NCBI GenBank assembly: GCA_900544175.1
Contig: UQUN01000010.1
Coordinates: 3,392-67,391, forward strand
DNA: 64,000 nt
Direction: 5' to 3'
From: an uncultured Alistipes sp.
GTDB lineage: Bacteria > Bacteroidota > Bacteroidia > Bacteroidales > UBA932
Of this stretch, positions 17,762-37,057 are shown piece by piece. The notes under the pieces are model-generated. The model made no database searches. It was given only the letters and a program-made list of their open reading frames with translations, and was not told where the DNA came from. The number at the start of each line of letters is the position of its first letter. The first letter of the stretch is position 1. The translations under genes were made by a program, and so were the position numbers.

Positions 17762-17772
17762 AAAAATAGATT

Positions 17773-20499: not shown

Positions 20500-20510
20500 A
20501 ACAAAACTAT

Positions 20511-21776: not shown

Positions 21777-21805
21777 GCAGTATCAATCACTAAAACCAAA
21801 CTGAA

Positions 21806-22237
21806 ATGGATAGAGAAGAGATCAAGCAGTTTCTCCGTCATCGTGAGCCGATGCTTCTGGTTGACGAGATGGAACTTCAGAACGGAGGCACAGAATGTGT
21901 CGGAAAGTATCACGTCAGAGGTGACGAATTCTTCCTCCAGGGGCATTTCCCCGGCTATCCGGTAGTGCCCGGAGTCATCCTCTGCGAGATTATGGGGCAG
22001 TGCAGCTCCTTGCTTATCAAGGATTATTTGGTAGGTCACACAACCTTGTTCACTGGCATTGACAAGACCCGTTTCAAGCATCAGGTCCATCCTGGCGATA
22101 CGGTAGAGGTGCATGCTCACATCACAAATCACCGGGCCATGCTTTTTTATATCGATGCAAAGGCATATGTGGGTGGTGAGATATGTGTCGAGGCCAGTCT
22201 TTCATTTGCAGTGATACCCAACGATAAAGTAAAATAA
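21806..22237 (+). CDS. fabZ: 3-hydroxyacyl-ACP dehydratase (hot-dog fold)
   Basis: 143 aa. FFLQGHFPGYPVVPGVILCE catalytic His motif of FabZ/FabA. Confidence 0.85.
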   Translation: MDREEIKQFLRHREPMLLVDEMELQNGGTECVGKYHVRGDEFFLQGHFPGYPVVPGVILCEIMGQCSSLLIKDYLVGHTTLFTGIDKTRFKHQVHPGDTVEVHAHITNHRAMLFYIDAKAYVGGEICVEASLSFAVIPNDKVK

Positions 22238-22239
22238 TT

Positions 22240-22989
22240 ATGCTGGAAGGATTATTAAAAGGCAGGGTGGCCCTGATTACCGGAGCTGCCCGTGGAATAG
22301 GCAAGGCTATTGCCATGAAACTGGCTTCAGCCGGAGCCGACATTGCTTTCACGGACCTCAGAGAGGACGACAATTTCAGGAATACAGTGGCTGAGATTAC
22401 AGCTCTTGGAGTGCAGTGCCGTGGCTATGCCTCAAATGCGGCGGACTTTGCCGAGGCTCATGCAACTGTAGACCAGATACTGAAGGACTTCGGTCATATC
22501 GACATTCTGGTCAACAATGCCGGCATTACCCGTGACGGCCTGATGATGAGGATGTCCGAGCAGCAGTGGGACAGTGTGATTACAGTCAACCTCAAGAGCG
22601 CGTTCAACTTTACGCATGCACTGACTCCCATCATGGCCCGTCAGAGAGGTGGCAGCATCATCAACATCTCTTCTGTTGTGGGCGTGAACGGCAATGCCGG
22701 ACAGTGCAACTACTCCGCTTCCAAGGCCGGTCTGATCGGTCTGGCCAAGTCCATAGCCAAGGAGATGGGCTCGCGCGGTATCCGTGCAAATGCCATTGCT
22801 CCCGGATTCATAATCACGGACATGACGAATGCTCTGCCTCAGGAGGTCCGTGACGAGTGGAACAAGAAGATACCCCTCCGTCGCGGCGGCACACCCGAGG
22901 ATATCGCCAATGTGGCTCTCTTCCTCGCATCCGACCTTTCCTCATATGTTACAGGTCAGGTCATAATCTGCGACGGCGGCATGCTGTAG
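22240..22989 (+). CDS. fabG: 3-oxoacyl-ACP reductase (SDR)
   Basis: 249 aa. TGAARGIG cofactor motif, NNAG, catalytic S...YSASK. Confidence 0.85.
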   Translation: MLEGLLKGRVALITGAARGIGKAIAMKLASAGADIAFTDLREDDNFRNTVAEITALGVQCRGYASNAADFAEAHATVDQILKDFGHIDILVNNAGITRDGLMMRMSEQQWDSVITVNLKSAFNFTHALTPIMARQRGGSIINISSVVGVNGNAGQCNYSASKAGLIGLAKSIAKEMGSRGIRANAIAPGFIITDMTNALPQEVRDEWNKKIPLRRGGTPEDIANVALFLASDLSSYVTGQVIICDGGML

Positions 22990-23031
22990 CCTCTTCCTGC
23001 TGCAGTCGGCAGTGTAAGATGCAGAAACAGA

Positions 23032-23064
23032 AAGAGTCCGGATCTGTTCCGGACTCTTCTTTTA
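23032..23064. terminator. Bidirectional hairpin terminator between convergent fabG and the BACON-thioredoxin lipoprotein gene
   Basis: AAGAGTCCGGA-tctgt-TCCGGACTCTT followed by TTTT on plus, A-rich on the other side. Confidence 0.65.
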
Positions 23065-23088: not shown

Positions 23089-24522
23089 TCAGTCTTCGTA
23101 TTCGAAGATGGCGAAGTTGTTGATCTTTATGTCTACGACGTTGTCTGTCACATATCCGGTCCCGGTTTGGAAGCCGTATATGGCGTAGTCCACTGATCCC
23201 TTATACGTGTCCTCGTAGTTGACGATGGCAACGATGTGGAGGTTTTCAGGATTCTCGACATCCTGGGGAACAGGGCAAGTCAGTTCGACATTGTTGATTT
23301 CACCGCCTGTCAGCTGGATAGGGTCTCCCCACATCTCGGTAACCTCGGCTCTTACCACATTGTCGTGGATGTATCTGCTGCCTCCATTTGACTGGTATGC
23401 GACGATGCTGTCCTCAAGTACCAGGACACTTATCCTGTAGTTGCCGGATTCCTTTGCACCTATTCCAAGGCTGATTTCAATGTTGTCTCCGTTGAGGTTG
23501 ACTATTCCGCCGATGGCTGTGTTGGCCGGCAGTTCTTCCACTGCTTCTTTGGCGAGGTCGGCAAAGAGTCTTCTTACGATGCTTCCAGACGAATTCTCAA
23601 CGCGTGCGTAGCTGTTCACGAGTCCTACAGGGATGTAGCCGTAGTTGAGGTAGCGGTAGTACTGGTTACTGCCGTCCCACTCCAGTTCGCTGCCGCCATC
23701 ATAAGAGATGTGCATGTTAACCGGGACTAAGTGGTTGGGGTAGTCTTCTATGGCTCCCATCAGAGACTCATTCATGCTGGGGCAGTTGGGGCATCCTGTA
23801 GCGGTGAAGCGGATCGCAAGGGAGCGTCTGAGGAAGGTCCTGCTGAAGTCGGCCTTGAGGTCGCCCATCTGCGATACAGTGATTGTAGCAGTTGTCATTC
23901 CGTCCTTTCCGTTGAGCGTCAGGACAGTCTCGCGTACTTCTCCGGAGTTGTTCTCGTCTTCTATGTTTGCTTCTGCGGAGAGACTGATAGTGTATGTCTT
24001 TAGCTGCGAGTATGTCGTGTTGTCGGAGAGGAGTGTGGAATCTGTGGCTGCGCAGGAATTGACGGTGAGCCATTCAGCTTCAGTGGTGACGTCAAAGCCG
24101 ACATTAGACCGGAGACTTATTGAGAAGTCCGTTGCATCCCCGCTGATAGATACGGACTGGCTCGCTATTGAAAAGCCGGGAGTGGGGTCCTGCACCACAA
24201 AGTACTGGGTGGTCACTCCTGCCTCTTCGATGTTGATACTGCCGACTCTTTCCTGGAGGTCGGAATTGATGTCAAGGATTGTGAATGACAACTCGTTTGT
24301 GCCTGCCGCTCCGGAGAGTGGAGTGATCGCGAACCATGTGGATGTGTTCTTGCTTACCTTCCACTCGTCCTCGAAGGGCATTCTTACTGTCAGAGTGGTG
24401 TCACTGACATTGGGCAGAAATATGGTTGAACCCGAAATGACAGGAGTCTCTGTATTGTCGGTGCATGCCGCAAGGCAGAGAGCAGCTGCGATACTTGCAA
24501 ACAAGATGTTTATCTGTCTCAT
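23089..24522 (-). CDS. Lipoprotein: N-terminal BACON-like Ig domains plus C-terminal Omp28-like thioredoxin-fold domain with CPNC motif (paralog 1)
   Basis: Start at MRQINILFASIAAALCLAAC (lipobox); the track ORF is extended upstream. ...IRFTATGCPNCPSMNES... CxxC after a beta-strand, YIPVG cis-Pro-like loop. C-terminal FAIFEYED. Confidence 0.7.
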   Translation of the reverse strand: MRQINILFASIAAALCLAACTDNTETPVISGSTIFLPNVSDTTLTVRMPFEDEWKVSKNTSTWFAITPLSGAAGTNELSFTILDINSDLQERVGSINIEEAGVTTQYFVVQDPTPGFSIASQSVSISGDATDFSISLRSNVGFDVTTEAEWLTVNSCAATDSTLLSDNTTYSQLKTYTISLSAEANIEDENNSGEVRETVLTLNGKDGMTTATITVSQMGDLKADFSRTFLRRSLAIRFTATGCPNCPSMNESLMGAIEDYPNHLVPVNMHISYDGGSELEWDGSNQYYRYLNYGYIPVGLVNSYARVENSSGSIVRRLFADLAKEAVEELPANTAIGGIVNLNGDNIEISLGIGAKESGNYRISVLVLEDSIVAYQSNGGSRYIHDNVVRAEVTEMWGDPIQLTGGEINNVELTCPVPQDVENPENLHIVAIVNYEDTYKGSVDYAIYGFQTGTGYVTDNVVDIKINNFAIFEYED

Positions 24523-24533
24523 GCTGGTATGTT

Positions 24534-26114
24534 TTAAAGTGCGACGATGAGTGATAGGTTGACACCTGTGTATGCAGGGGTCATGCGGCAAACGCCTCCG
24601 GAGCAGAGGTAACCTTCCTTGAAGCGTCCGAAGTTGAGGGCTGCCCTGACTTTGGAGTATGAATAGCTTACCGAGCCGTTGATGTAGTGTGTCTTTGTGT
24701 CCCCGTAGTTCCACATGTCCTGGATCGAGATGCTCCATCTCGGTGCGAAACTGTACTCGAGGAGGGCTGCTGCCCAGCTCTTGTGGTCCTGCTTCGTGTA
24801 CAGGTGCTGAAGTTCAAGCCGCAGGGAGTTCTTTCTGTCGAACTTATAGGTCATGTCGGCCACGACTGTGTGGGAGTTCCACATGTCCGTTCCTTTGGAG
24901 ATGGCCTGCGAGTTGAGGGTCTGCCAGGAGTAGAACAGGATCATCTTGAAGTCGCTTCCGAACCATCTTTCGATGTCTATTGTAAGGTCTCTGAACAGCA
25001 GTTCGTCATTGCCTCTTACACCTGTCATCATGTCCAGTATGCCGCCGTAGTAGGTCGAGAAGTTGGCATGTACTTTCATGCCTTTCTTGCCGCCCATGGC
25101 TGTACCTCTCCTGAAGTTGTAGTAAAGGTCGGCCTGTCCTCCGATCTCATCGTTCTGGGCCGTGTAGGGGTTCAGTGTGGCGAGGGCATAGGTATGCTGC
25201 TGTGTGAGGGCAGGTACGTAGTTGATGAACGTCCAGATGTCGGACGGTCCGTTGTTCCTGATACCCTGAAGCATAGGGTTGTTGAGCTTTCTGAATGTCA
25301 GCAGTCCGCCGAATCCGTTGCCGGTGTAGCTGAAGTCTACCTGGATGGCCTCGCTTCTGGTGGAATCGAGACTGTTGTAGAATCCTGGATCGGCTTTTCT
25401 GCTCATGTATTCGCCGCTGAGACGGAAGCCTGCGTAACCGAGACTCATCCTCGCTGAGTAGCCGAACGTATGTGGATTCATGCCCTCGATGGTCACGGGC
25501 TCGTACTTGTCGAGTACGCTTCCCTCGACTGTCCAGTCGAAGTTGTCCCAGTTGGCTGCCCTGGATATCGACAGTGACAGGTCCGCTCCGGCGACGGTGT
25601 TGCTGGTGTATTCCTGAATGTCCCGGATCCTTCCGTACAGACCCTTGATGGTGAGGAAGTCCCCGAATGTGTAGCCTACCTTGACACCCTGTATTGCATT
25701 GTTTATACCCAGAGTCCTGTCTTCGTAAGTCCTGAAGAGAAGTCCGCTACCGAACTGCTCGTGTATGCTTCCTATCCTCACGTCCCAACCGTTGGCCGCA
25801 TATCCGGCATACAGGTCATATCTCATGAAGTTCTCGCTCATGATGTTGTCAGGGAAGTATCCTGCAATGGGGGGAAAGTAGCCTTCCATCTGAAGGCCGG
25901 CGTAGAATCCTTTCCAGGAGTAGTCCAACTTGAGGTAGTTGTTGGACCCCATGTGTCCGTCCGGATTGTAGGAATTTGTTTTCTCGTCTTTGAAGTAGTA
26001 GGTGGTATTGGTCTCCAGACCAGCAGAAAAGTTGCCCTTGTCCTCGTTCTGGGCAAAGGCAACTATCCCTGTCAGAGCCAAAAGACCTACTGCAGTCGTA
26101 AATCTTTTGAGCAT
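24534..26114 (-). CDS. DUF6029-like outer-membrane beta-barrel protein
   Basis: 526 aa, signal peptide, amphipathic strand pattern throughout, C-terminal ...NLSLIVAL. Sits 4 nt after tlpA and 11 nt before paralog 1. Confidence 0.5.
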   Translation of the reverse strand: MLKRFTTAVGLLALTGIVAFAQNEDKGNFSAGLETNTTYYFKDEKTNSYNPDGHMGSNNYLKLDYSWKGFYAGLQMEGYFPPIAGYFPDNIMSENFMRYDLYAGYAANGWDVRIGSIHEQFGSGLLFRTYEDRTLGINNAIQGVKVGYTFGDFLTIKGLYGRIRDIQEYTSNTVAGADLSLSISRAANWDNFDWTVEGSVLDKYEPVTIEGMNPHTFGYSARMSLGYAGFRLSGEYMSRKADPGFYNSLDSTRSEAIQVDFSYTGNGFGGLLTFRKLNNPMLQGIRNNGPSDIWTFINYVPALTQQHTYALATLNPYTAQNDEIGGQADLYYNFRRGTAMGGKKGMKVHANFSTYYGGILDMMTGVRGNDELLFRDLTIDIERWFGSDFKMILFYSWQTLNSQAISKGTDMWNSHTVVADMTYKFDRKNSLRLELQHLYTKQDHKSWAAALLEYSFAPRWSISIQDMWNYGDTKTHYINGSVSYSYSKVRAALNFGRFKEGYLCSGGVCRMTPAYTGVNLSLIVAL

Positions 26115-26118
26115 AATT

Positions 26119-26607
26119 CTACTGAAGTTTTAAGATTTGGTCAAAAAGTTCCTCCTCGCTGCCTGGAGTATAGCCGGTGTGAGTGTAGACGATCTTGCCT
26201 TCCCTGTCGAGAATGAACACGGTGGGCTGTGTCTGTACGTTCATGGCTCTCTTGAGGTCTCCGTTCTCGTCAAGCAGAATGGTGAAGTCGGTCCAGCCTC
26301 TGCCGTTGACCATAGGTTTTACCTTGGCGCTCGACCTTGAGTCGTCTGTAGCGACAGCCACTACCTTGAACTCGGCCTCTTCGATCCAGTCCACATAAGC
26401 GTCGTTGACGGCTCCGAGCTCCTGAAGGCAGGGCTTGCATGTGGTATACCAGAATGAAAGTATTACAGGTACTCCGTCCTCCATGATGGACTGGACGTTG
26501 ACCGCATTTCCGTCGATGTCCTTCACCTCAACGCTGGGCAGGTCCTTCTGTGCCCATGCAAGACAGGGGAGAAGCAGTGCGGCAGCTAAAAATAGAAATC
26601 TTTTCAT
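26119..26607 (-). CDS. tlpA: TlpA/ResA-family periplasmic thiol-disulfide oxidoreductase
   Basis: 162 aa, signal peptide, ILSFWYTTCKPCLQE thioredoxin CxxC, cis-Pro region TQPTVFILD. Confidence 0.8.
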   Translation of the reverse strand: MKRFLFLAAALLLPCLAWAQKDLPSVEVKDIDGNAVNVQSIMEDGVPVILSFWYTTCKPCLQELGAVNDAYVDWIEEAEFKVVAVATDDSRSSAKVKPMVNGRGWTDFTILLDENGDLKRAMNVQTQPTVFILDREGKIVYTHTGYTPGSEEELFDQILKLQ

Positions 26608-26622
26608 CTTTATTGTAGTGTG

Positions 26623-28056
26623 TTAGTTTTCGTATTCGAATTCAACAGAGCCTCCTACGGGGATGTCTATTACGTTGTCGACGATGTAGCCGTAGTCATC
26701 ATATATGACGTTTCCGTTGTTGAACTGGCCGGTGTATGCTCCCTCGTAGGTGGTAAAGGCCACTACGTGCAGATTCTCGGTGTCCTTGACGGTACCTGGT
26801 ACAGGTATGCTCAGGTTTACATTGTACATGCCGTTCGTTGAGAGATATGCAGGGTCGCCGAAATGTTCGGTGAGTACGGAACGCACTACGTTGCTGTGCT
26901 CGTAGTTGTATGGATCAGGGACGATGCCCGTGTAGTCTGACTGTGTTCCGATGATTCCGTCCTCAAGCAGGAATACGGAGATGAAGTAGTCCCCGGCCTC
27001 TTTGGAGGCTATGTAGAGGTCTACTGTCAGGTTGGAACCGTTGATGGCTGCGGAGCCGATTATGCCAGTGTTGGAAGGCAGGTTCTCGACGGCGTCCTGG
27101 GCCACCCCTACAAATGCGCCTGCTGTTATCGCCGTGCTGTTGTTGTTGATTGTAGAGTAGTAGTTCTCTATGGCTGTGGGGAATCCGGCGATATCAAACT
27201 GATTCATGTATTCATTGACATAGTTGAAGCTGAGAGCTCCCGATCCCTGATACATGTTCATGGCGACTATGCGGTCGGGATACTCCTCGATGGCCTGGTG
27301 CAGGCTTTCGTTCATCATGGGGCAGTATCCGCACCAGTTTCCGGTGAATCTGATTACGAGAGAGCGGCGGAGGAAATTCCTGGAGAAATCCTCACCCATA
27401 TTGGGTTTCTGCTCGAATGTGACTGTTCTCTCGATACCTTTCTCACCGGTAAAGGTGACTCTTGCAAGACGAGCCTCCTCACCTGTGTTTGCAGCAATGG
27501 ACATGGATGCTGTGTATGTTTTGTACTTCGAAGCAGTCGTTCCGTCAGCGAGCAGGTCCGAAATGGACGAGATCTCACCGAATGTCAGCCAGTCAGAGGA
27601 GCTTGTGATGGTAACGTCGCCGACATTGGCCATGAACTCGAACTCTGTGCCGCTAAGCTCGCTTCCGCTGAAGGAATATGAGTCGGCCAGTTCGAATCCG
27701 GGATTTACATCCTGAATGACATAGTATGTCGTCTCTTCTGTGCCGGAAATGATCGTGAATGTTCCTACTCTCTCAGCCATGTCCTCATTGTACTGAAGGC
27801 ATTTTATGGTGATATCTGTGGTGCCGGCCTCTCCTGAGAGTGGCACTATGGAGAACCAGTCAGCGTTGCAGCTGGCCTGCCATGCGCTTTCGAATTCAAT
27901 AGGTACGGTAATAGTTGTGTCAGCAGCATTGGGCAGCATTATCGATGTGCCTTGTATCAATGTGTTCTGACCTCCTTCCGTGCAGGAAGTCAAGGCTGCG
28001 GAAAGACCTGCCGTGCAGAGTCCGCAGAGGATAATCGGTTTGAAAAAACGTTTCAT
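26623..28056 (-). CDS. Lipoprotein: BACON-like domains plus Omp28-like thioredoxin-fold domain with CGYC motif (paralog 2)
   Basis: MKRFFKPIILCGLCTAGLSAALTSC lipobox. ...IRFTGNWCGYCPMMNES..., GFPTAIEN cis-Pro loop. C-terminal VEFEYEN. Confidence 0.7.
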   Translation of the reverse strand: MKRFFKPIILCGLCTAGLSAALTSCTEGGQNTLIQGTSIMLPNAADTTITVPIEFESAWQASCNADWFSIVPLSGEAGTTDITIKCLQYNEDMAERVGTFTIISGTEETTYYVIQDVNPGFELADSYSFSGSELSGTEFEFMANVGDVTITSSSDWLTFGEISSISDLLADGTTASKYKTYTASMSIAANTGEEARLARVTFTGEKGIERTVTFEQKPNMGEDFSRNFLRRSLVIRFTGNWCGYCPMMNESLHQAIEEYPDRIVAMNMYQGSGALSFNYVNEYMNQFDIAGFPTAIENYYSTINNNSTAITAGAFVGVAQDAVENLPSNTGIIGSAAINGSNLTVDLYIASKEAGDYFISVFLLEDGIIGTQSDYTGIVPDPYNYEHSNVVRSVLTEHFGDPAYLSTNGMYNVNLSIPVPGTVKDTENLHVVAFTTYEGAYTGQFNNGNVIYDDYGYIVDNVIDIPVGGSVEFEYEN

Positions 28057-28138
28057 ATAAAAATAAGTATTAGTATTGTCTTCCTAATTATCACTAATGA
28101 TTATGCAAATATAATTTTTTTTGTGATTTGCAGTACGT

Positions 28139-30139
28139 TTACTGACGGCTGTTTTTATAATTTTCAAGACCCTGTTTCAGGAAAGCCACGAACTCATTGA
28201 TGTCGAGATTGTAGCTTCTCGGGTCGGCCAGGAGCTCTCCGTCACGGCCTTCGAGGACATAGCAGGGCTGTGCGTTGACACCGTAGTAGGTATAGGCTAT
28301 ATAGGAATTGATCTTGCCTATGTCCTTCAGCGTCCTGTCACCGGCTGTAATCCAGTCACTCTCGTCGGCCTCCTTCTTGTCATCGCAGTACAGTGCTACT
28401 AAAACATAGTCATTGCGGAGTATCTCCAGTACCTTGGGGTCGGACCACACTCGGTTCTCCATCTCGCGGCAGTTGACGCAGCCGTGGCCGGTGAAGTCTA
28501 TGAACAGGGGCTTGCCCACGCTCTCCGCGTAGGCCCTGGCCTCTTCCAGCTCGAAGAAGCCCTGAAGGTTGTGCGGAAGATGGAGGAAGTCGCTGTATTT
28601 TGGTGCCTTACCTTCTGTTGAAGTCTGCGTTGCAGCCGATCCTGCCGTGCTGCCAGTCACTATCACCGGAGCCTCGTCCCCGAGAATGAAATCCTGAGTC
28701 GTGAGCGGGGGCAGATATCCGGACAGAGCCTTCAGCGGAGCACCCCACATACCCGGAATCATATACACCACGAAGGAGAACACCACTATCACCAGTGTCA
28801 GACGGCCCACTCCGATATGCTTGACCTCGTCGTCATGTGCAAAGCGGATCTTGCCCAACAGATATAGCCCCAGAAGGGTAAACACCACAATCCATATCGC
28901 CAGGTACACTTCCCTGTCCAGCAGTCCCCAGTGATAGGTCTGGTCGGCCACGGAGAGGAACTTGAAGCCCAGAGCCACCTCGACGAAAGCGATGACCACC
29001 TTCACGCTGTTGAGCCAGCCGCCGCTCTTAGGCAGCTTCTTGAGTACGGAAGGGAAGAGGGCAAACAGCGTGAAAGGAAGAGCAAATGCGACAGAGAAAG
29101 CCAGCATGGTGATAATCGGCTCCCAGAACTCTCCCTGAGTAGACTTGATAAGAACTGAACCGACTATAGGTCCCGTACAGGAGAATGATACCAGCACCAA
29201 GGTCAGAGCCAGGAAGAAAATTCCTCCGAGGCCCTTGGTGTCCGCCTTGGAATCGGACTTGTTGACCAGCTTTGAAGGCATGGTTATCTCGAATGCTCCG
29301 AAGAACGAAGCCGCGAATATCATGAATACTATGAAAAATATGATATTGGGCAGCCAGTGGGTCGAAAGCCAGTTGAAAATGTCCGCTGTGACGGCATCGC
29401 CTCCGACTATTCTGGTAATGAGAATGATTGCCGCAATAGGTAGAGTATACAGCATGACAATGAACAGTCCGTACATTGCCGCACGTATACGTCCTCGGGC
29501 CGGACCGCCTTCACCTTTGAGGAAATATGACACGGTCATAGGCACCATAGGGAACACACATGGTGTAAGCAGGGCTACAAAACCCCAGATGATGGCCTCC
29601 AGTATCAGACCCCACAGGCTCTTGCTCCTGCCTGTCTCCTCATCATCTCCGGCAGGAGAGACGGACACGCCGTCCGGCAGGCTGATGGAAAGCGTCTGAT
29701 CGGCCAGCGGCAGGCAGTTGTTGTCGTCGCACGCCATCCATTCCACATAGACGTTTACCTGGGCGTTTTTCTTCTTGAGACGGATATCCTGGTAGAAAGT
29801 CACGCTGTCCTCGAAATATCCGATCTCCATCATGTAGATGTCGTCGTAATATCTGAACGGTTCTGAGGATATCTGCATGTCTCCCTCTTTCACTGCTCTT
29901 TTATTGTCTGCGATCGTGAAGTCCACAATCGTGGCGTTAGGACCGAATTCAGTCCGCAATGTGTCATATATATGCCAGGTAGAGTCAATGATAGCAGTTA
30001 CAGAAACCCTGTAAAGATTCTTGCCGAGTTCCTCTACGTCTGTTCTCCAATGTGCGTGCTGCTCCTGTGCGTTGACGGATAATGTTGGAAAGATTATCAT
30101 GGCGATCAATCCAACGATGACCGATATACCTTTTTTCAT
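28139..30139 (-). CDS. dsbD: Protein-disulfide reductase DsbD (alpha-beta-gamma, full length)
   Basis: Start at MKKGISVIVG. Periplasmic alpha domain with CDDNNC. 8-TM beta core with TPCVFP and SCTGP Cys. C-terminal thioredoxin gamma domain FTGHGCVNCREME. Confidence 0.85.
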   Translation of the reverse strand: MKKGISVIVGLIAMIIFPTLSVNAQEQHAHWRTDVEELGKNLYRVSVTAIIDSTWHIYDTLRTEFGPNATIVDFTIADNKRAVKEGDMQISSEPFRYYDDIYMMEIGYFEDSVTFYQDIRLKKKNAQVNVYVEWMACDDNNCLPLADQTLSISLPDGVSVSPAGDDEETGRSKSLWGLILEAIIWGFVALLTPCVFPMVPMTVSYFLKGEGGPARGRIRAAMYGLFIVMLYTLPIAAIILITRIVGGDAVTADIFNWLSTHWLPNIIFFIVFMIFAASFFGAFEITMPSKLVNKSDSKADTKGLGGIFFLALTLVLVSFSCTGPIVGSVLIKSTQGEFWEPIITMLAFSVAFALPFTLFALFPSVLKKLPKSGGWLNSVKVVIAFVEVALGFKFLSVADQTYHWGLLDREVYLAIWIVVFTLLGLYLLGKIRFAHDDEVKHIGVGRLTLVIVVFSFVVYMIPGMWGAPLKALSGYLPPLTTQDFILGDEAPVIVTGSTAGSAATQTSTEGKAPKYSDFLHLPHNLQGFFELEEARAYAESVGKPLFIDFTGHGCVNCREMENRVWSDPKVLEILRNDYVLVALYCDDKKEADESDWITAGDRTLKDIGKINSYIAYTYYGVNAQPCYVLEGRDGELLADPRSYNLDINEFVAFLKQGLENYKNSRQ

Positions 30140-30381
30140 TAATCGATTAATTATTTTAATATGTTTACAAAAAACGTCCAAAGGTATAAAACCATGTTAA
30201 AAAAACAAAATTTGATAACAGTTTTTCACGAAAATCAATAAAATGATTTGCTGAAACTTATGTCATCAATTAAAATGAACGTATATAGTTAAAGTAAAAA
30301 CGTTACAAATTTATACAAAAACTCAACAAAACTCCAAATTCTGAGAAAAAAATATTGACCATTTAATCGTTCGTTTTATAT

Positions 30382-31827
30382 ATGAGGCAAATTTGGTCGT
30401 CGTGCTACATTTTTGTCACGGCTGTGTTACTTTTGTCAGTCATTACGTCGTGTCAGGAGTCTCGGATTCCTGGAACTCTTTCTTCTGGGGCTACATTCGT
30501 GGTGGAGTCATCCGAAGGCAGCCTTGATACTGTAAAGCTGGATTTCAACGGGCCATGGGAGGTCGTGTCGTCCCCTGAATGGTGCTCCGTGTCGCCTGCG
30601 GAAGGCAATGCCGGTCCATGTGTCCTGACAGTTACAGCAACATCTGCCAATACTGCACTGCATGAAAAGGAAGGCATTGTCTCAATCATGGTCAATGCCG
30701 GAGATGAAGTCTCCTGTTATGTTGTTCAGCGTGGGGAGGACGGAATATCCCTGATTTCCGACGCTGGTCTGTATGTCTCTCCCGATGAGGGATCTGAGGT
30801 AAGGATATCCATTGAGGGCAATACTGCGTTTGACGAGTCGTCTTTGTCTTCTGACGTGGACTGGCTGACGTATCGAGGTGTGGAGATTACGTCGGACTCG
30901 CTTGTCCTTGGCGATGGAGAGACTGTCTCAGAGTATTACACTGCGGATATAATTCTTGCTGCCGGAGAGAACGCTTCCGGAAGTCTGCGGAGTGGTTACG
31001 TGTCCGTAGGCGGGGATGAGGTTGCGGTCACTCAGGTTGTATCGCCTGAGTGGAGCAGGGATTTCTACCGTCACAGCGCCATGATCAAGATTACTGCCAC
31101 ATGGTGTACCAACTGTCCTCTCATGGAGGTTGCTTTCGGAATAGCTGACGAGCAGATGCCCGGTCGGATAGTCCCGATGAACATGCACAGGACGGACTCC
31201 GATGGCGGGCTTGGATGGAGCGGTACGGACACGTTTGAGAAACTGTACAGCGTCGCTTCAGTTCCTATGGTGGCCTTCAACGGATTTGCAAAATTCCAGA
31301 GTCTCAACTCTCCGTCGTCGACAGCGATGCTTATGACCAGAGTGGCTGAAGAGGCAGTGCAGAATTTCCCTTCAAGGACCAATATCATGGCTGCGGCTTC
31401 ATTGACCGACAGGGACATAAGGATAGACGCCTTTGTCGCGGCCAAGGAGGGTGGAGATTATCTGCTTGCAGCGTATGTGCTTGAGGACAGTATCATAGGA
31501 TTTCAGGACGACGCTCACGGTATCGTGGAGGATCCTTATCATTATGTGCACAGGCATATCGTCAGAGGTTCTCTCACAGAGCTCACGGGGGATCCGGTAC
31601 CGGCTGTGTCGGACGGGGAGATGGCTCACATTATCATAAACGGGGAACTTCCGTCCAGTGTCTCAGATCCGTCAAACACTTATATAGTACTGTATGTCTC
31701 GACGCCAGGGGATCCGGACATGAGTCTGTGTACGGTACCGTCCGTCAACTATGCATCGTCCGGCTACGTGATTGACAACGTGACTACCGTGCAGATGAAC
31801 GGCTTTACTGACTTCCAGTACGAATAA
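30382..31827 (+). CDS. Lipoprotein: BACON-like domains plus Omp28-like thioredoxin-fold domain with CTNC motif (paralog 3)
   Basis: MRQIWSSCYIFVTAVLLLSVITSC lipobox. ...IKITATWCTNCPLMEV..., SVPMVAFNG cis-Pro loop. C-terminal FTDFQYE. Confidence 0.7.
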   Translation: MRQIWSSCYIFVTAVLLLSVITSCQESRIPGTLSSGATFVVESSEGSLDTVKLDFNGPWEVVSSPEWCSVSPAEGNAGPCVLTVTATSANTALHEKEGIVSIMVNAGDEVSCYVVQRGEDGISLISDAGLYVSPDEGSEVRISIEGNTAFDESSLSSDVDWLTYRGVEITSDSLVLGDGETVSEYYTADIILAAGENASGSLRSGYVSVGGDEVAVTQVVSPEWSRDFYRHSAMIKITATWCTNCPLMEVAFGIADEQMPGRIVPMNMHRTDSDGGLGWSGTDTFEKLYSVASVPMVAFNGFAKFQSLNSPSSTAMLMTRVAEEAVQNFPSRTNIMAAASLTDRDIRIDAFVAAKEGGDYLLAAYVLEDSIIGFQDDAHGIVEDPYHYVHRHIVRGSLTELTGDPVPAVSDGEMAHIIINGELPSSVSDPSNTYIVLYVSTPGDPDMSLCTVPSVNYASSGYVIDNVTTVQMNGFTDFQYE

Positions 31828-31874: not shown

Positions 31875-34400
31875 TTGTTTATGAACAAGTTTATTAAAAT
31901 TGCTGCAATTGCTTTTTCTCTGGCGCTTCTGTTCAGCGCCTGCCGCGAGAATGAGACTACATCCTCGCAGATAAAAGCGACTACGCTGGAGATCCCCGGA
32001 GATTCCGGAGAGTACGTGCTGCCCTACAGTATTGAGGGCTATGCCGACGGATCGTCCCTTACAGCTACCACCGAGTCCGAGTGGATAAGCATAAGTGAGA
32101 TAACCCAGGGGCAGGAGGGTGAGATTACGTTCACTGCCGGCCGCAATGACGGTCAGCCAAGGCAGGGCCGCATCATTCTGAGGTATCCGAATGCCCCCGA
32201 CCTTACGGTGGCCGTCAACCAGTACACCTACGGCGTGGAGGATGGTACTCCACTGATGATAGAAGTCAGTGTGCTTTCTCCCTACAGCGCGGAGGTGACC
32301 TATACGCCCATCAGTTACGACGGAGGATATTTCTTCCTGGTTATGGGAGCGGAGGACTTTGACCTGTATCTTCAGAACGACAACATGGAGGGCCTTCTGG
32401 AGTCCGACCTGGAGTGGATCCAGTATCAGGCGGACTACAATGGCATGACTATTGGCGAATTCCTGGGACGCGCCCCTCAGGTGTACACTGACAGCCGCGA
32501 GCCGAATGTCCAGTTGTACAACGACCTGGAGCGTGAGAGCGACTACTATGCCTACTGCTACGGTCTCAGCCTTACCGGAGAGGCCCTGACAGAGGTTCTG
32601 TACAAGGAGTTCCGCACGGAGGTCGTCCAGACTGTGGACATGACCTTCGAAGGCGAGGCGACTGACATCACTCTGGAGTCGGCGCACACTGCGATCCATC
32701 CCTCGACGGATGAATATACATATTACTGGACATATGTGTCTTCGATGGACATGGCCCAGTACGACCTTTACACCATCATGGACAATATGATTCTGAACCT
32801 GCGCGCCGCCAGTGAGGAGAGCGGCATGCCTCTCTCCGAGTATCTCTGCAAGGGAGACTACGAGGCGGACGCCACTGATCTTTGGGCCGGTACCGAGTAC
32901 ACCATAGTGGCATGGGGCATGGATGAAGGTGGCTCTCCCACAACTGAGCCTCAGGAAGTGTTCAGTTTCAACACGCCGAGAGAGGAGATCGTGGACGACT
33001 GCACCTTTGAGATTACGTGCCCTCAGGTCGAATCCATGGATATTCTGGTGAACATAGTACCCTCCAATCCGGAGACACGCTATTACATAGCTGTGATCGA
33101 TTCGGCTACGGCCTACGGCTATAATGACGAGCAGATGGCCCAGCGCATCATCAACATGGAGAGCCAGCGCCTTATGGATGGCTTCTACGGCGATGATCAG
33201 AACTGGACCAACTTCGAGTCCCTCTATACGGGCGAGCAGAGCAAGTGGGCACGTGCTGACCTGTACTGGCAGAAAGTGAATCCCAACACACTGATGCACA
33301 TATACGTGTTCGGTGTCAGCACGCGCGGTGAGCGCACCACCGCTGTGGCCCGTCTGGACCAGCGCACCGCTGAGGCCGACAAGTCTGACATGACATTCGA
33401 TGTGAGCGTTGTGGAGGAGAACTGGCAGGGAGGCACCTACAAGGTCGTTCCGAGCAACGACGAGGACTTCTGGGTGCCGTTCATGGTGCAGAGCTCCGAC
33501 CTTGACCTGTTCCGCAAAGGAGACGGTACCCTGAACGAGCAGCTTCTCATGGACGAGATAACCCATTATTATGACAATACCGTGTCATATTATGTAAGAC
33601 AGGGTGAAAATGATGTATACTTCTCCTGCATCTCCGACCGTGACTACACCCTGCTGACCTTCGGCTGGGCCGGCACCAATACGACACCTTTCTATGAGTT
33701 CGAGCATCATACCCCGGCCATACCTTTCGGACAGAGTGATGCTGAGATGACGGCCAGCTACGAACTTTTCGACGGTGCGGAGCTGTATGCAATGGATCCC
33801 GAGCGCTGGGAGGGAAGTCAGGAGGACTGCGTGATGTACATCAAGTTCAACCCCAATGACAAGGCTGTCCACTGGTACGGCGGTGTATGGGCTCCTGAGT
33901 CAGCTTATCAGGATGTAGGCGGAGTATACCAGCTGCTGATACTGATCATGAATCCTGTCGCCTCGTTCGTGGACCAGCCGACTGGCACTATCAGGCCCTG
34001 GTTCGACAATACCTGGAGTTTCTCCTACGTGGCCGAGGGAGCTGACGGAACATTCGGCGAATGGCATTACGAAGAGTTTACTCCCCAGCGCGGCGTGAAT
34101 ATGGACGAACCTTACGATTTCTGGAGCAATCCTTCACAGAACAGCGTGATCGTCAACATCCCCAAGGACTATAAGGAGCGTGCGGAAGCTATGCTCATTG
34201 AGGATGCCAAGGCTGCTCTCAGGAATCCCGTTCCGGTAAATATTGTCACCGGTCCGGAGTTCGATCCCATGGGCCGCTATATCGCACCTGACATCACAGC
34301 GGAGAAAACGGCAAACGGAGTCTCGCTGCATAACTGGAAGGACGGTCTCGACAGCCGTATGGTATTCCATCGTGACGGAGAGCGTCATGTGTCCTTATAA
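31875..34400 (+). CDS. Large surface lipoprotein (841 aa), N-terminal BACON-like domain, remainder unassigned
   Basis: SpII signal (LALLFSAC). BACON-like block ...WISISEITQGQEGEITFTAGRNDGQPRQGRIILRY...TVAVNQ. Acidic, Tyr/Trp-rich body with no recognisable catalytic motif. Confidence 0.55.
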   Translation: MFMNKFIKIAAIAFSLALLFSACRENETTSSQIKATTLEIPGDSGEYVLPYSIEGYADGSSLTATTESEWISISEITQGQEGEITFTAGRNDGQPRQGRIILRYPNAPDLTVAVNQYTYGVEDGTPLMIEVSVLSPYSAEVTYTPISYDGGYFFLVMGAEDFDLYLQNDNMEGLLESDLEWIQYQADYNGMTIGEFLGRAPQVYTDSREPNVQLYNDLERESDYYAYCYGLSLTGEALTEVLYKEFRTEVVQTVDMTFEGEATDITLESAHTAIHPSTDEYTYYWTYVSSMDMAQYDLYTIMDNMILNLRAASEESGMPLSEYLCKGDYEADATDLWAGTEYTIVAWGMDEGGSPTTEPQEVFSFNTPREEIVDDCTFEITCPQVESMDILVNIVPSNPETRYYIAVIDSATAYGYNDEQMAQRIINMESQRLMDGFYGDDQNWTNFESLYTGEQSKWARADLYWQKVNPNTLMHIYVFGVSTRGERTTAVARLDQRTAEADKSDMTFDVSVVEENWQGGTYKVVPSNDEDFWVPFMVQSSDLDLFRKGDGTLNEQLLMDEITHYYDNTVSYYVRQGENDVYFSCISDRDYTLLTFGWAGTNTTPFYEFEHHTPAIPFGQSDAEMTASYELFDGAELYAMDPERWEGSQEDCVMYIKFNPNDKAVHWYGGVWAPESAYQDVGGVYQLLILIMNPVASFVDQPTGTIRPWFDNTWSFSYVAEGADGTFGEWHYEEFTPQRGVNMDEPYDFWSNPSQNSVIVNIPKDYKERAEAMLIEDAKAALRNPVPVNIVTGPEFDPMGRYIAPDITAEKTANGVSLHNWKDGLDSRMVFHRDGERHVSL

Positions 34401-34439: not shown

Positions 34440-36992
34440 ATGAACGCAAGAACAATTCTCAGCATCATGGCGGCTCTGCCGCTGATGCTCGTCGGCTGTA
34501 CTCCCGAGGAGACGGTCGAACCCCCCGTGATAACAGCGGAGGACATCACTGTGTCCGCTGACGCTCACACCGACAAACTGACCTACAGTATCACGAATCC
34601 TGTAGAAGGCAGTCAGGTGGAAGCCGAGTCCAACCAGGACTGGATCCATACATTCAACTACGACACGGAGAACACTATAACGTTTGAGGTTGATGCCAAC
34701 GTCTCGGATGAAAGGACTGCCGAGATAACCATTTCCTATCCCCAGGCCGAGCCCGTTACGGTGACCGTCACTCAGATGGCTGCCGGCGAGTCCATCGCCC
34801 TGGATCCCGAGACCCTGTCTTTCCTGCCTGCCGGCGGAGACCTTAGCGTTACCGTCAACAGCGGCCGTGCATGGGTCATGACCGGTGAGTCCGACTGGGT
34901 GAGCGCATCTGCCGCTTCCGGTGACCCCGGTGCGCAGGTGACATTCAACGCACAGGCCAACGAGAGCGACGAGCCCCGCGAAGCCACATTCCAGTTCATC
35001 TGTGGCACCAACGTCGTTCCCCTCACTGTTACCCAGAGCTTTGCAGGTCGTATCATCGTAGAGAAGGCAGAGTATGACATCCCCGGAACGGCCAACACGT
35101 TCAGCATCGCGCTCCAGTCCAACATGAGCGATGTCAAGGTCGAGATCACCGAGGGTTCCGACTGGCTGACCGATGTCACTACGAAGGCCATGCAGGACAT
35201 GAGTTTTGAGTTCTCCGCCACTGAAAACGAAGGAGATGAGACGAGGACAGCCGTGGTAGTGTTCTCAAACGCCGATGCCTCTGAGCAGGTAGCGGTGAAC
35301 CAGGAGCCTTCGTTCCCCAGCGACGTGCTTACCCGCGTCACTGACGAGGAATTCAAGACTTACCTCAGGGATAACTTCGATACCGACGGTGACGGCACCA
35401 TCAGCCGCTCCGAGGCCCAGGCTGTAACCAGCATGGACTGCAGCTACAGCAATATCATTTCTGCTGCCGGAATCGAGTATTTCGAGAATCTGTCAACCGT
35501 GAACTTCAATTCCTGCTATATGATGACAGAACTCAATCTGAGCAATATGCCCAATCTTACGGTAGTAGAGCTCAATTCCTGCAACAGACTTGAGACACTG
35601 AATCTCGAAGGAAGCGATGCATTAGTGGAACTTAATGTCGGTCTCTGCAGTGCATTGACATCTGTAGATCTTTCAGGCAAGGCAGCCCTGGAGAACATAT
35701 CCGCTTACAGCAGTGGTCTTACCTCAATTGACGTGTCTGAGTGTCCTGCCTTGGTACTCCTTTCAGTGTATGGCTCCGAGGGCATAACCGAGATAGATGT
35801 CACCAACAACCCCGAGCTGGTAAGTCTCTCAGTGCCGAATATCGCCTCCGTAGACCTGACCAACAATACCAAGTTGGAAAGCCTGTCTGTGAACAGTGAC
35901 AGATTGTCGTCTATAGATCTGAGTGCCAACACTGAATTGCGCTCACTCGGTTTCACCAACTGTACGTTTACTACAGTAGACCACACTATGTGCCCGGAAC
36001 TCAGTTCGCTCAGTTTCGATTATTGCTCTAATCTGACGACGATAGACATCAGCAAGAATATGAAGCTCAACTCGCTGTCCACATATATGTGCAACAATAT
36101 TCAGGTGCTGTACATGACAGAAGGACAGTACGTTCCTACGATCAACGGTATCGGCTCCGATCTGATTCAGTATAAGGATATGGAGTATCCCTACGACTTG
36201 GCTGCAGGGATAGCTGATCCAAACCTGAAGGCGGCTGTCATAAATCAGTGTGACTATTATGAGCCTTGGGATGTCATTACTGAGGATGAGGCTCCGTATC
36301 TTACAAGTCTGAATGCTTCAGGAAGAGGGATAGAGTCTCTTACCGGTCTGGATTATTTCACTTCACTGAGGGAAATAAATGCCTCGAACAACGCTATTAC
36401 TGAGGTGGATCTTTCCTCACTGCAGAATCTGGAAGTGCTTAATCTGTCAAACAACCAGATAACATCCATCGATCTGACGCGTAACCCTAATATCCGCGAG
36501 CTTTATCTCGATCATAACAGCTTGACTTCCATCGAGCTTCAGAAAGACGAACTGGTGGAATGCGATCTGTCATACAACAACATGACATCGCTTCAGTTGG
36601 ATTATGCTACCAATCTGATATCACTGAATGTCTCCAACAATCAGATTGAGGATCTGGATGTTCACATGAACGAAGCGATGCAGGACTTCGACTGCAGCAA
36701 CAACCAGATCAGTTACTTCAACATCTGGTCGCTTAGTGGAATCGTGAACTTCAACTGCAGCAACAATCCTGTGTCGGATCTCAGCCAGACCACTTATCTG
36801 GTCAATATGGAGACACTCAATGTAAGCAATACTGACCTGATTACATTGAACCTCAGTGAGAACACATTGTTGAGACAGCTTATTGCAACTGGTTGTGAAA
36901 GTCTTACAGACATATATGTCGGCGATAATACGATTGCGGACATGCAGGTTGATGATGGTGTGAACATTGTAAACGGTGCTCCCGGGGAGTAA
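34440..36992 (+). CDS. Surface lipoprotein: three BACON domains plus leucine-rich-repeat (LRR) domains
   Basis: Lipobox LMLVGC. Three repeats of about 85 aa ending TVTQ/AVNQ (BACON). Then about 22-residue LxxLxLxxN LRRs (...LEVLNLSNNQITSIDLTRNPNIRELYLDHNSLTSIEL...). Confidence 0.75.
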   Translation: MNARTILSIMAALPLMLVGCTPEETVEPPVITAEDITVSADAHTDKLTYSITNPVEGSQVEAESNQDWIHTFNYDTENTITFEVDANVSDERTAEITISYPQAEPVTVTVTQMAAGESIALDPETLSFLPAGGDLSVTVNSGRAWVMTGESDWVSASAASGDPGAQVTFNAQANESDEPREATFQFICGTNVVPLTVTQSFAGRIIVEKAEYDIPGTANTFSIALQSNMSDVKVEITEGSDWLTDVTTKAMQDMSFEFSATENEGDETRTAVVVFSNADASEQVAVNQEPSFPSDVLTRVTDEEFKTYLRDNFDTDGDGTISRSEAQAVTSMDCSYSNIISAAGIEYFENLSTVNFNSCYMMTELNLSNMPNLTVVELNSCNRLETLNLEGSDALVELNVGLCSALTSVDLSGKAALENISAYSSGLTSIDVSECPALVLLSVYGSEGITEIDVTNNPELVSLSVPNIASVDLTNNTKLESLSVNSDRLSSIDLSANTELRSLGFTNCTFTTVDHTMCPELSSLSFDYCSNLTTIDISKNMKLNSLSTYMCNNIQVLYMTEGQYVPTINGIGSDLIQYKDMEYPYDLAAGIADPNLKAAVINQCDYYEPWDVITEDEAPYLTSLNASGRGIESLTGLDYFTSLREINASNNAITEVDLSSLQNLEVLNLSNNQITSIDLTRNPNIRELYLDHNSLTSIELQKDELVECDLSYNNMTSLQLDYATNLISLNVSNNQIEDLDVHMNEAMQDFDCSNNQISYFNIWSLSGIVNFNCSNNPVSDLSQTTYLVNMETLNVSNTDLITLNLSENTLLRQLIATGCESLTDIYVGDNTIADMQVDDGVNIVNGAPGE

Positions 36993-37020: not shown

Positions 37021-37057
37021 TGAGGAGTGGCTCTGTCAGAGTCGCTCCTCTTTTTTA
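37021..37057 (+). terminator. Hairpin terminator after the LRR lipoprotein gene
   Basis: GAGGAGTGGCTCTG/CAGAGTCGCTCCTC imperfect inverted repeat followed by TTTTTTAT. Confidence 0.55.

Follow-up and report, generated by a model that had tools for sequence, protein, structure and literature searches.

Gene content and control elements of the locus

The locus lies in a 64,000-nt window (the whole stretch of DNA that was analysed) and comprises five minus-strand genes, a divergent control region and a plus-strand unit, with a hairpin beyond each end:

23031..23059, both strands: bidirectional GC-rich hairpin with a stem of 11-12 bp (terminator scan), located past the last gene of the minus-strand operon and ahead of the convergent fabG, likely a terminator
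23089..24522, minus strand: Omp28-like/HBP35-like lipoprotein 2, 477 aa from MRQINILF, GCPNCP
24534..26114, minus strand: DUF6029 outer-membrane beta-barrel, 526 aa, about 24 strands
26119..26607, minus strand: secreted TlpA/ResA-type thiol-disulfide oxidoreductase, 162 aa, C-KP-C, SPI-type signal peptide
26623..28056, minus strand: Omp28-like/HBP35-like lipoprotein 1, 477 aa, WCGYCP, lipobox Cys25
28106..28113, minus strand: match to the Bacteroides-type -7 promoter motif (TATATTTG), in the 82-nt gap between the DsbD and lipoprotein 1 genes
28139..30139, minus strand: DsbD-type electron transporter of the membrane, full length (666 aa, start codon ATG at 30139)
30140..30381: divergent control region, 242 nt
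30382..31827, plus strand: Omp28-like/HBP35-like lipoprotein 3, 481 aa, WCTNCP, first gene of the divergent unit
31881..34400, plus strand: BACON/FN3 lipoprotein, 839 aa (gene call; BACON by Pfam, FN3 by profile)
34440..36992, plus strand: BACON-LRR lipoprotein, 850 aa (Pfam: three BACON, LRR_4, LRR_EndoS; internalin-like LRRs)
37022..37050, plus strand: strong hairpin (13-bp stem, 7 GC pairs) with a TTTTTT tail, likely the terminator closing the plus-strand unit

The six genes from lipoprotein 2 to lipoprotein 3 and their CxxC motifs, as given in the initial annotation, were all recovered in an ORF and motif check, together with the minus-strand gaps of 82, 15, 4 and 11 nt, and the same six genes are returned by gene calls made independently on metagenome contigs of identical sequence. 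This anatomy and the tight spacing support a single unit, whose genes would be co-transcribed. The divergent spacer is indeed AT-rich (22.3% GC vs 51.6% in the window), its length being 242 nt and not the 243 bp previously given; it carries minus-strand Bacteroides -7 motifs at 30186 and 30313, and a search of it for Rfam families or notable repeats found none. The -7 motif at 28106..28113, which comes from a regex scan giving 34 matches over both strands of the whole window, may represent an internal promoter for an ancestral unit of Omp28-like lipoprotein, TlpA and barrel.

The extent initially assigned to the locus, 23089-31827, is too narrow, as the plus-strand unit runs on through two further lipoprotein genes. 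The 839-aa product aligns with the 738-aa protein and the 847-aa DUF4988 protein of the B. xylanisolvens operon (hhalign probability 98.5-98.7%), a profile similarity that places it in the accessory-lipoprotein superfamily belonging to the conserved gene set of these operons in other genera. The gene for the 850-aa lipoprotein starts 39 nt past it and is followed by the terminator; this protein probably also belongs to the unit, as a substrate- or partner-binding surface protein. Neither an S41 peptidase nor a SusC/SusD pair is encoded around the window locus.

Sequence and structural features of the redox proteins and the barrel

The three-domain architecture originally claimed for DsbD is borne out by Pfam and alignment, with a Cys pair in the alpha domain (C137/C142, CDDNNC), two Cys in the transmembrane core (C194/C321, in TPCVFP and SCTGP) and a CxxC in the gamma thioredoxin domain (C554-VN-C557, CVNC), these six catalytic Cys being invariant in 22 of 22 homologs. 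Pfam recognises DsbD_TM (PF02683; 66 bits vs a cut-off of 27.1) and Thioredoxin_7, and the gamma domain matches PDB 3F9U (E=3.8e-36); Pfam DsbD_N gives no match at E<0.01 in the window protein and is found in the B. ovatus ortholog. The alignment with NCBIfam PRK00293 covers residues 100-581, begins at model position 87 and scores 109 bits, below the cut-off of 330, and the window DsbD is a divergent Bacteroidota-type protein, not one of the enterobacterial subfamily.

The TlpA protein exceeds the Pfam cut-offs for AhpC-TSA, Redoxin and Thioredoxin_8 and matches PDB 2M72 (E=4e-43) and, with E values of about 1e-10, ResA structures; the NCBIfam ResA/StoA/DsbE/TlpA models are also matched, all far below their equivalog cut-offs. 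Its Bacteroides orthologs are labelled 'peroxiredoxin family protein' by NCBI. The barrel matches DUF6029 (PF19494) over residues 7-525 (E=2.9e-173, 577.8 bits vs a cut-off of 27), and its AF2 model shows a barrel of about 24 strands, the last loop of which forms a hairpin with the invariant C504-SGGV-C509; neither Pfam nor the model reveals a plug domain. Wzi and MtrB are just two among its many generic barrel matches, and the Shewanella MtrCAB complex (6R2Q), which relies on hemes, not thiols, bears no sequence relationship to the window proteins. We infer that the barrel takes part in the redox module.

The reading as an ordinary locus for cytochrome c maturation or polysaccharide export, in which DsbD/TlpA would serve to reduce apocytochromes or DUF6029 would be a Wzi-like polysaccharide porin, with unrelated lipoproteins, is disfavoured and very improbable. 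The TlpA matches to ResA/DsbE/CcmG models, albeit weak, and the HHpred similarity noted between some Wzi-like barrels and DUF6029 (PMC9603273) point towards it; nevertheless, it leaves the tight recurrent linkage of TlpA, DUF6029 and Omp28-like genes without explanation, Wzi is a generic match, and TlpA falls far short of every equivalog threshold. A role of TlpA in the maturation of cytochrome c or cytochrome oxidase finds no support, the ccm/ccs/sco context being absent from the window and from homologous loci, and neither the window nor any of the inspected homologous loci contains ccm/ccs/resBC, OPX, Wzx or Wzy genes; nearby ccm/ccs genes were what the initial annotation had named as an argument against its redox-relay reading.

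The three lipoproteins share a layout of two BACON-type sandwiches, a thioredoxin fold and an Omp28 beta-sandwich. Of the BACON-thioredoxin architecture attributed to them, the thioredoxin part stands for all three, with an Omp28 domain added (PF11551; 70.2, 80.5 and 61.0 bits for paralogs 1, 2 and 3, vs a cut-off of 34.9), and the BACON part exceeds the Pfam cut-off in paralogs 1 and 3 (34.6 bits in paralog 3) and is borderline in paralog 2 (24.9 vs 25). Scores against NCBIfam lipoprot_Omp28 (NF033782) are 45.5, 56.3 and 23.6 bits, far under its 150-bit cut-off. NCBIfam also includes an 'Omp28-related selenoprotein' model. The AF2 model of lipoprotein 1 (pLDDT 90.2) places C242-GY-C245 at the N-terminus of helix 1 (245-258), and both Cys, together with the cis-Pro P293 of the GFPT loop, are invariant in a 38-homolog alignment that includes paralogs 2 and 3, as are E365 and H387 (NYEH motif) of the Omp28 domain; T-x3-CxxC is kept in 132 of the 142 representatives of 50%-identity clusters, CGYC being the commonest form. 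Both the fold and the Cys conservation that the initial annotation had put up for checking hold, and, as modelled, the lipoproteins carry a genuine thioredoxin fold and are predicted to be redox-active.

Relationship to HBP35 and Omp28

Foldseek and profile searches both identify HBP35 of P. gingivalis (5Y1A) as the closest solved relative of the three lipoproteins (Foldseek best match for lipoprotein 1, E=1.1e-10, TM 0.60; profile match E=1e-10, residues 218-440). HBP35 is surface-located and has thioredoxin activity, seen as insulin reduction that depends on its Cys residues (PMC2907840). In HBP35 as in the window lipoproteins, a thioredoxin domain (FT-x3-WCGYCP) precedes a beta-sandwich of the Omp28 type, but HBP35 is exported by the type IX secretion system via a C-terminal domain and A-LPS-anchored, whereas the window proteins are lipoproteins that bear BACON domains N-terminally; the three lack a detectable type IX secretion C-terminal domain and carry lipoprotein signal peptides instead. 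Moreover, HBP35 is encoded monocistronically, and no neighbouring TlpA, DUF6029 or DsbD has been reported. P. gingivalis Omp28 itself (PF11551, NF033782; structure 2R2C, profile match E=1.7e-11) is likewise an outer-membrane lipoprotein and has in common with them the C-terminal beta-sandwich and its NYEH motif, but the window proteins are almost double its length and have BACON domains in addition, and Omp28 has been called a putative adhesin.

The best-documented phenotype of HBP35 is heme utilisation, not protein reduction. Heme or metal acquisition is accordingly an alternative, in which the Omp28-type beta-sandwich binds hemin or another metal cofactor on the outside of the cell, the CxxC, TlpA and DsbD keep the site reduced and DUF6029 serves as the uptake channel; we regard it as rather unlikely. 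Bacteroidales are heme auxotrophs, the closest solved homolog binds hemin through residues 135-344, the equivalent of the Omp28 domain, its mutant grows poorly at limiting hemin, and the invariant E365 and H387 fall within this same domain. Nevertheless, hemin limitation does not induce hbp35, the locus holds neither a TonB-dependent heme receptor nor hmu/hus-type genes, DUF6029 is devoid of a plug, and the accessory genes of the locus elsewhere (PDZ-S41 peptidase, LRR and FN3 lipoproteins, SusC/SusD) indicate protein or peptide substrates.

With regard to location, the signal for lipoprotein export to the surface consists of CS(D/E)2 or K-(D/E)2 at +2 to +5 past the lipid Cys (PMC5080379, PMC6222051). 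The window paralogs (CTEGG, CTDNTE and CQESR) hold a single acidic residue, at +3, the canonical acidic positions being +3/+4, and their export signal, as read from these residues, appears weak; at least one D/E occurs at +2 to +6 in 160 of 183 homologs, with a peak at +6/+7. Because of the one acidic residue in the paralogs and the +6/+7 position in many homologs, surface exposure stays inferred. Elsewhere, the Trx-Omp28 module is joined in single polypeptides to Big_2, BspA-LRR, fimbrillin-like, DUF4988 or BACON domains, and LRR+BACON+Trx-Omp28 fusion proteins also occur.

Conservation of the gene set and its proposed function

The synteny survey covered 81 species loci, including those of B. 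xylanisolvens, P. coprocola, Butyricimonas and Alistipes. In 74 of 78 species loci, the gene immediately upstream of DUF6029, within 250 nt, encodes TlpA, and a CxxC Omp28-like lipoprotein gene is found at most 6.5 kb away in 75 of 79; full-length DsbD occurs within 10 kb in 23 of 81 and is absent from that neighbourhood in most loci, for example in P. coprocola and Alistipes. Its site of recruitment varies as well, being 5' in the window's clade, 3' in B. ovatus/xylanisolvens and after the barrel in locus L047, and other clades have stand-alone DsbD-alpha domains. An S41+PDZ peptidase accompanies SusC/SusD in the Bacteroides and L092 versions, the SusC/SusD pair being present also in L047, L056, L062, L065 and L067. 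The constant core is made up of TlpA, DUF6029, CxxC Omp28-like lipoproteins and large FN3/BACON lipoproteins, and the cluster is real and widely conserved in gut Bacteroidales; the gene set recurs across genera, with DsbD linked in a subset of the loci. We found no paper on this operon, in keeping with the view that the set was undescribed as a unit, but the concept of a Bacteroidota surface thioredoxin is not new, since the lipoproteins are homologs of HBP35 (PMC2907840).

The arrangement resembles the DsbD/ScsB-TlpA cascades (E. coli DsbD-DsbC/CcmG/DsbG; Caulobacter ScsB-TlpA-PprX) in its three-domain transporter with six conserved Cys and in the presence, alongside genes for candidate final acceptors, of one for a secreted CxxC protein of the TlpA type. 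In Caulobacter, electrons pass from a DsbD-like protein through TlpA to a terminal enzyme, the peroxiredoxin PprX (PMC3322552). Here, however, the candidate acceptors are outer-membrane, probably surface, binding-domain lipoproteins rather than soluble enzymes of the periplasm, a large barrel in the outer membrane is an obligatory partner and DsbD is only sometimes in cis. That precedent, the NCBI label of the Bacteroides TlpA orthologs and the surface/lipoprotein thioredoxins of Muribaculaceae, which were found associated with a high-fat diet and considered a possible defence against ROS (PMC13404670), would fit an envelope antioxidant pathway that repairs oxidised Cys/Met or scavenges peroxides at the outer membrane of an anaerobe. 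Such an oxidative-stress function is nevertheless unlikely: the terminal proteins bear CxxC thioredoxin motifs and no peroxidatic Cys motif, Msr and peroxiredoxin domains are absent by Pfam and NCBIfam, Shoji et al. saw no oxidative-stress phenotype for HBP35, and several paralogs together with adhesin-type fusions are better explained by substrate recognition.

Equally doubtful is a purely periplasmic role in biogenesis, with lipoproteins that face the periplasm or need reduction or isomerisation just during assembly, TlpA and DsbD doing no more than keeping them, or the Cys pair of the barrel, correctly folded, and all redox chemistry confined to the inside of the cell envelope. TlpA is periplasmic, the CGYC motif of paralog 1 recurs as the active site of DsbC, a periplasmic isomerase, the invariant barrel pair could need handling, and the export signal of the window paralogs is weak; to our knowledge, there is no thiol relay across the outer membrane, nor a mechanism by which a periplasmic TlpA reduces a surface protein. 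The BACON domains and the Big_2, BspA-LRR and fimbrillin-like fusions, however, are typical features of surface proteins, HBP35 is surface-located, the N-termini of most homologs are acidic as counted above, and the retention of three to five thioredoxin paralogs plus binding proteins is hard to explain by assembly alone.

A parallel for action outside the cell, by description, is the Paraprevotella 'Omp28-related' surface protein that recruits trypsin for degradation (PMC9477747). This P. clara protein (00502), a gut Bacteroidales surface protein with Omp28-type and Ig-like domains that is encoded with a partner binding protein, captures a host protein rich in disulfides and furthers its destruction; it differs in its type IX secretion and its WD40 and five Ig-like domains, no thioredoxin domain is reported, and no link to TlpA, DUF6029 or DsbD is described.

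In summary, the computable tests of the redox-relay reading (fold, Cys conservation, gene-set recurrence and ccm/ccs context) all speak in its favour, and the locus is best read, with a fair degree of confidence, as a dedicated envelope thiol-reductase module running from DsbD through TlpA to HBP35/Omp28-type outer-membrane lipoproteins that likely act on extracellular disulfides. DsbD would accept electrons from thioredoxin in the cytoplasm and pass them through the inner membrane, the secreted TlpA-type oxidoreductase would act as the periplasmic shuttle, and the three thioredoxin-fold lipoproteins, with their CGYC, CPNC and CTNC active sites, would be the terminal clients, working at the outer membrane, most likely on the external side, with the DUF6029 barrel and the FN3/BACON/LRR binding lipoproteins. 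Points against this reading are the lack of DsbD within 10 kb in most loci, the weak export signal of the window lipoproteins, the absence of an S41 peptidase and of SusC/SusD next to the window locus, and the heme phenotype of HBP35. A protein substrate is suggested by the S41+PDZ peptidase and SusC/SusD elsewhere, the LRR lipoprotein in the window and the adhesin-type fusions. The most likely job of the module would then be to reduce or isomerise disulfides of extracellular proteins for their capture, their unfolding and their degradation or import, and the Bacteroides version of the module is joined to an importer of the SusC/SusD type and to an S41 peptidase of the surface.

The locus and its genomic surroundings

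The six open reading frames of the initial annotation, and its minus-strand intergenic gaps of 82, 15, 4 and 11 nt, were borne out by gene calling and coordinates; the same six calls are made on identical human-gut metagenome contigs and in the metagenome-assembled genome GCA_964322725.1, and the domain calls are upheld by Pfam and NCBIfam. The nearest named relatives of the locus belong to Candidatus Coprenecus (Bacteroidales).

Genes and likely terminators of the redox locus, and three neighbouring genes
28139-30139, minus: DsbD, 666 aa, start codon ATG at 30139
26623-28056, minus: Omp28-like lipoprotein 1 (paralog 1), 477 aa, WCGYCP
26119-26607, minus: TlpA, 162 aa, CKPC
24534-26114, minus: DUF6029 barrel, 526 aa
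23089-24522, minus: Omp28-like lipoprotein 2 (paralog 2), 477 aa, GCPNCP
30382-31827, plus: Omp28-like lipoprotein 3 (paralog 3), 481 aa, WCTNCP
23031-23059: hairpin terminator after the last minus-strand gene
37022-37050, plus: hairpin terminator 3' of the 850-aa gene
37693-38526, minus: OmpA-like porin
38538-41198, minus: 886-aa coiled-coil-like protein
41382-43703, plus: 773-aa open reading frame without a Pfam match

The divergent spacer is AT-rich as claimed (22% GC, against 52% window-wide), its length being 242 nt rather than 243 bp. A sigma-70 promoter scan was uninformative (17 sites against 14.6 expected), so the Bacteroides-type -7 element TAnnTTTG was searched in its place; it occurs, as a motif match only, on the minus strand at 30186, 5' of dsbD, and again at 28113 within the 82-nt gap, hinting at a candidate internal promoter there. 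Rfam and repeat searches of the locus and spacer returned no match. With the terminators placed at 23031-23059 and 37022-37050, the divergent unit comprises Omp28-like lipoprotein 3 and two further lipoproteins, one of 839 aa (BACON/FN3) and one of 850 aa (BACON and LRR); the six-gene set thus stands, but its limits had been drawn too narrowly on the plus strand.

Single-sequence searches of the PDB and Pfam gave no match for the 839-aa lipoprotein, and pairwise BLAST against its Bacteroides counterparts was marginal, whereas profile-profile comparison with hhalign established it as a homolog of the two large accessory proteins of Bacteroides (probability 98.5-98.7%). Its profile contains BACON and FN3-like repeats only, and no catalytic domain was detected in the profile search.

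The redox locus is abutted by a FabH/FabF/dehydratase/FabG cluster (19543-22989), whose dehydratase has ApeI/ApeP-like Pfam matches, so that the cluster may represent a specialised lipid or aryl-polyene-type pathway and not core fatty-acid synthesis. Histidine-utilisation genes lie at 14937-19470 (a HutH-like aromatic amino-acid lyase, a HutI-like amidohydrolase and a formiminotransferase-cyclodeaminase), and the porin, the 886-aa protein and the 773-aa frame adjoin each other at 37693-43703.

Redox proteins and the DUF6029 barrel

All three window lipoproteins share one architecture, which in the AlphaFold model of paralog 1 (pLDDT 90.2) consists of a pair of beta-sandwiches spanning residues 33-216, a thioredoxin fold with strand 232-238, C242-GY-C245 starting helix 245-258 and then beta-alpha-beta-beta-alpha, and a C-terminal beta-sandwich (330-471). 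The claim that the CxxC motif sits in a true thioredoxin fold is upheld by its position at the start of helix 1 and by the invariance of P293 in the GFPT cis-Pro loop; in a 38-sequence alignment including all three paralogs, C242 and C245 are likewise invariant, as are E365 and H387 of the last domain. The profile of this alignment matches Porphyromonas gingivalis Omp28 (2R2C, E=1.7e-11) and, across the thioredoxin and sandwich parts, the P. gingivalis surface protein HBP35 (5Y1A, E=1e-10), also the top Foldseek match of the paralog 1 model. The combined thioredoxin-Omp28 module is widespread (2033 clusters at 50% identity, E<=1e-3), and 132 of the best 142 cluster representatives keep T-x3-CxxC, with CGYC the most frequent form, which agrees with the expected conservation of the cysteines in orthologs. 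The existence of an NCBIfam model for an 'Omp28-related selenoprotein' also fits a redox-active site. Each paralog has its own CxxC dipeptide, and the CGYC of paralog 1 is also the motif of DsbC, which suggests different redox potentials or substrates among them.

Some homologs in the loci of other species are single polypeptides with two or three thioredoxin CxxC modules in tandem (L046 12886-14805; L049 13144-15375; L050 11660-13816; L057 13082-15325; L079 11591-14149), a subset having an additional [D/N]NCxxC motif at the C terminus, which the window paralogs lack.

The window DsbD is full-length, with all three domains, as initially annotated; its six catalytic cysteines show no variation across 22 homologs, its gamma domain matches PDB 3F9U, and its score below the enterobacterial DsbD cut-off marks it as a divergent member of the family. 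TlpA is a secreted CxxC thioredoxin-fold protein that scores below every NCBIfam equivalog cut-off, its nearest structures being 2M72 (uncharacterised) and ResA.

In the barrel, residues 496-519 hold the invariant segment GRFKEGYLCSGGVCRxTPAYTG, in which four residues separate two cysteines; the confidence of the AlphaFold model is low here, and the pair may form a structural disulfide, a redox relay or a metal site. Loci L044 and L079 each carry two DUF6029 genes, the first after TlpA and before two large accessory lipoproteins, the second before the Omp28-like array.

Conservation of the gene cluster

In an alignment-based scan with each species represented by one genome, DUF6029 was present in at least 421 genomes, from which 80 loci were retrieved. 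The gene-neighbourhood check bore out the association: TlpA lies on the same strand within 250 nt upstream of DUF6029 in 74 of 78 assessable loci (median gap 34 nt), and in 75 of 79 an Omp28-like gene with CxxC is present within 6.5 kb. In Bacteroides, Phocaeicola and Alistipes the operon typically runs from TlpA and DUF6029 through two or three CxxC-bearing Omp28-like genes of ~365 aa to a ~740-aa protein without CxxC and a DUF4988 protein of ~850-1050 aa; in many cases a BACON+PDZ+S41 peptidase comes next and SusC/SusD flank the operon. Carriers include Phocaeicola coprocola, Alistipes and B. ovatus/xylanisolvens, the last with the order SusC, SusD, Calx-beta, TlpA, DUF6029, three Omp28-like genes, a 738-aa protein, DUF4988, S41, a 163-aa membrane protein and full-length DsbD; accessions of the B. 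ovatus/xylanisolvens orthologs are CBK65617-CBK65620 and EGN10340-EGN10344. A cytochrome c maturation locus was rejected, since neither the window nor the homologous loci inspected contain ccm or ccs genes.

DsbD is not a constant member of the operon. It is linked to the module in distant lineages, but its position varies (5' in the window clade, 3' in Bacteroides and B. caecigallinarum, after the barrel in locus L047), and none was found within 10 kb in the loci of other species. The linkage count of 23/81 is likely a lower bound, because 10-kb flanks were used and the Bacteroides DsbD lies ~12 kb from the barrel. That DsbD has been recruited repeatedly and independently is good evidence that it and the module are functionally coupled.

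Several Cryptobacteroides-type clusters without a full DsbD nearby encode DsbD-alpha-like domains as separate proteins of 149-178 aa, which retain the Cys pair and in two cases have a membrane anchor at the C terminus (L023 7530-7985; L025 7538-7987; L029 7548-8000; L034 6947-7483; L036 5364-5840, all from metagenome-assembled genomes). Butyricimonas muris and Bacteroides caecigallinarum encode PorV-like outer-membrane proteins, of a type IX secretion component family, in or next to the cluster (L039 13921-14994; L059 8456-9421), and rhamnogalacturonan-II-type GH127, GH141 and rhamnosidase genes directly follow the B. ovatus/xylanisolvens locus (L087 17453-22544), which may be coincidental.

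Probable surface location and the proposed relay

The Omp28-like lipoproteins are likely to be surface-exposed, a location favoured by their BACON or Ig-like N-terminal domains, by acidic residues after the lipid Cys in 160/183 homologs, and by longer homologs that fuse the thioredoxin-Omp28 module to adhesin-type partners (Big_2 arrays, BspA-type or other LRRs, fimbrillin-like, DUF4988, GLUG or collagen repeats); HBP35 itself is surface-located (PMC2907840). Nevertheless, the canonical lipoprotein export signal requires acidic residues at +3/+4 (PMC5080379, PMC6222051), and the single acidic residue of each window paralog (CTEGG, CTDNTE, CQESR) makes for a weak signal.

On the precedent of the ScsB-TlpA-PprX cascade (PMC3322552), cytoplasmic thioredoxin would hand electrons to DsbD, DsbD to TlpA, and TlpA to the Omp28/HBP35-like thioredoxins, the barrel, always adjoining TlpA, being the obvious candidate partner for passage across the outer membrane. 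The HBP35-like lipoproteins, TlpA and the DUF6029 barrel, which has 24 strands and an invariant Cys-SGGV-Cys loop, might form an outer-membrane-crossing thiol-disulfide relay that exports DsbD-delivered cytoplasmic reducing power and reduces host or dietary protein disulfides at the surface, a counterpart of the MtrCAB conduit with protein thiols in place of hemes; we put this forward tentatively, as a proposal that may well prove wrong. Heme acquisition appears rather improbable as the function, although the HBP35 hemin site lies in its Omp28-like portion; E365 (in LLEDG) and H387 (in NYEH) of the Omp28 beta-sandwich of paralog 1 (26623-28056) fall in the equivalent region. Oxidative-stress defence is doubtful, and so, to the same degree, is a purely periplasmic role in assembly.

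Extracellular proteins are suggested as substrates by the companion genes, which in the window encode binding lipoproteins with LRR and FN3/BACON domains and in other loci the PDZ-S41 peptidase and SusC/SusD. Paraprevotella has an 'Omp28-related' surface protein that recruits trypsin for degradation (PMC9477747); it has no reported thioredoxin domain.

The individual parts are of known kinds (DsbD, TlpA, HBP35/Omp28), several with structural-genomics structures, and a Bacteroidota surface thioredoxin was already demonstrated in 2010 (HBP35, PMC2907840). In line with the initial annotation, no publication was found that describes the TlpA-DUF6029-Omp28-like(-DsbD) operon, nor any DUF6029 function beyond a passing HHpred remark (PMC9603273). 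Its overall interpretation is largely supported by every computable test, with the provisos that more genes belong to the unit, that DsbD is variable and that HBP35 is a precedent. The operon gives a first functional context to DUF6029 and to the large BACON/FN3 and DUF4988 lipoproteins.

Gut Bacteroidales are anaerobes surrounded by disulfide-stabilised mucins, IgA, digestive proteases, antimicrobial peptides and plant storage proteins. The operon bears on how they handle extracellular disulfides and on how surface thioredoxins such as HBP35 are recharged; since it unites an inner-membrane electron importer, a periplasmic shuttle, an outer-membrane barrel and thioredoxin-lipoprotein arrays in one genetic unit, the question becomes directly testable in genetically tractable Bacteroides. 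If the relay is real, dominant gut Bacteroidales would reduce the disulfides of mucin, IgA, proteases and defensins at their surface before proteolysis and uptake.
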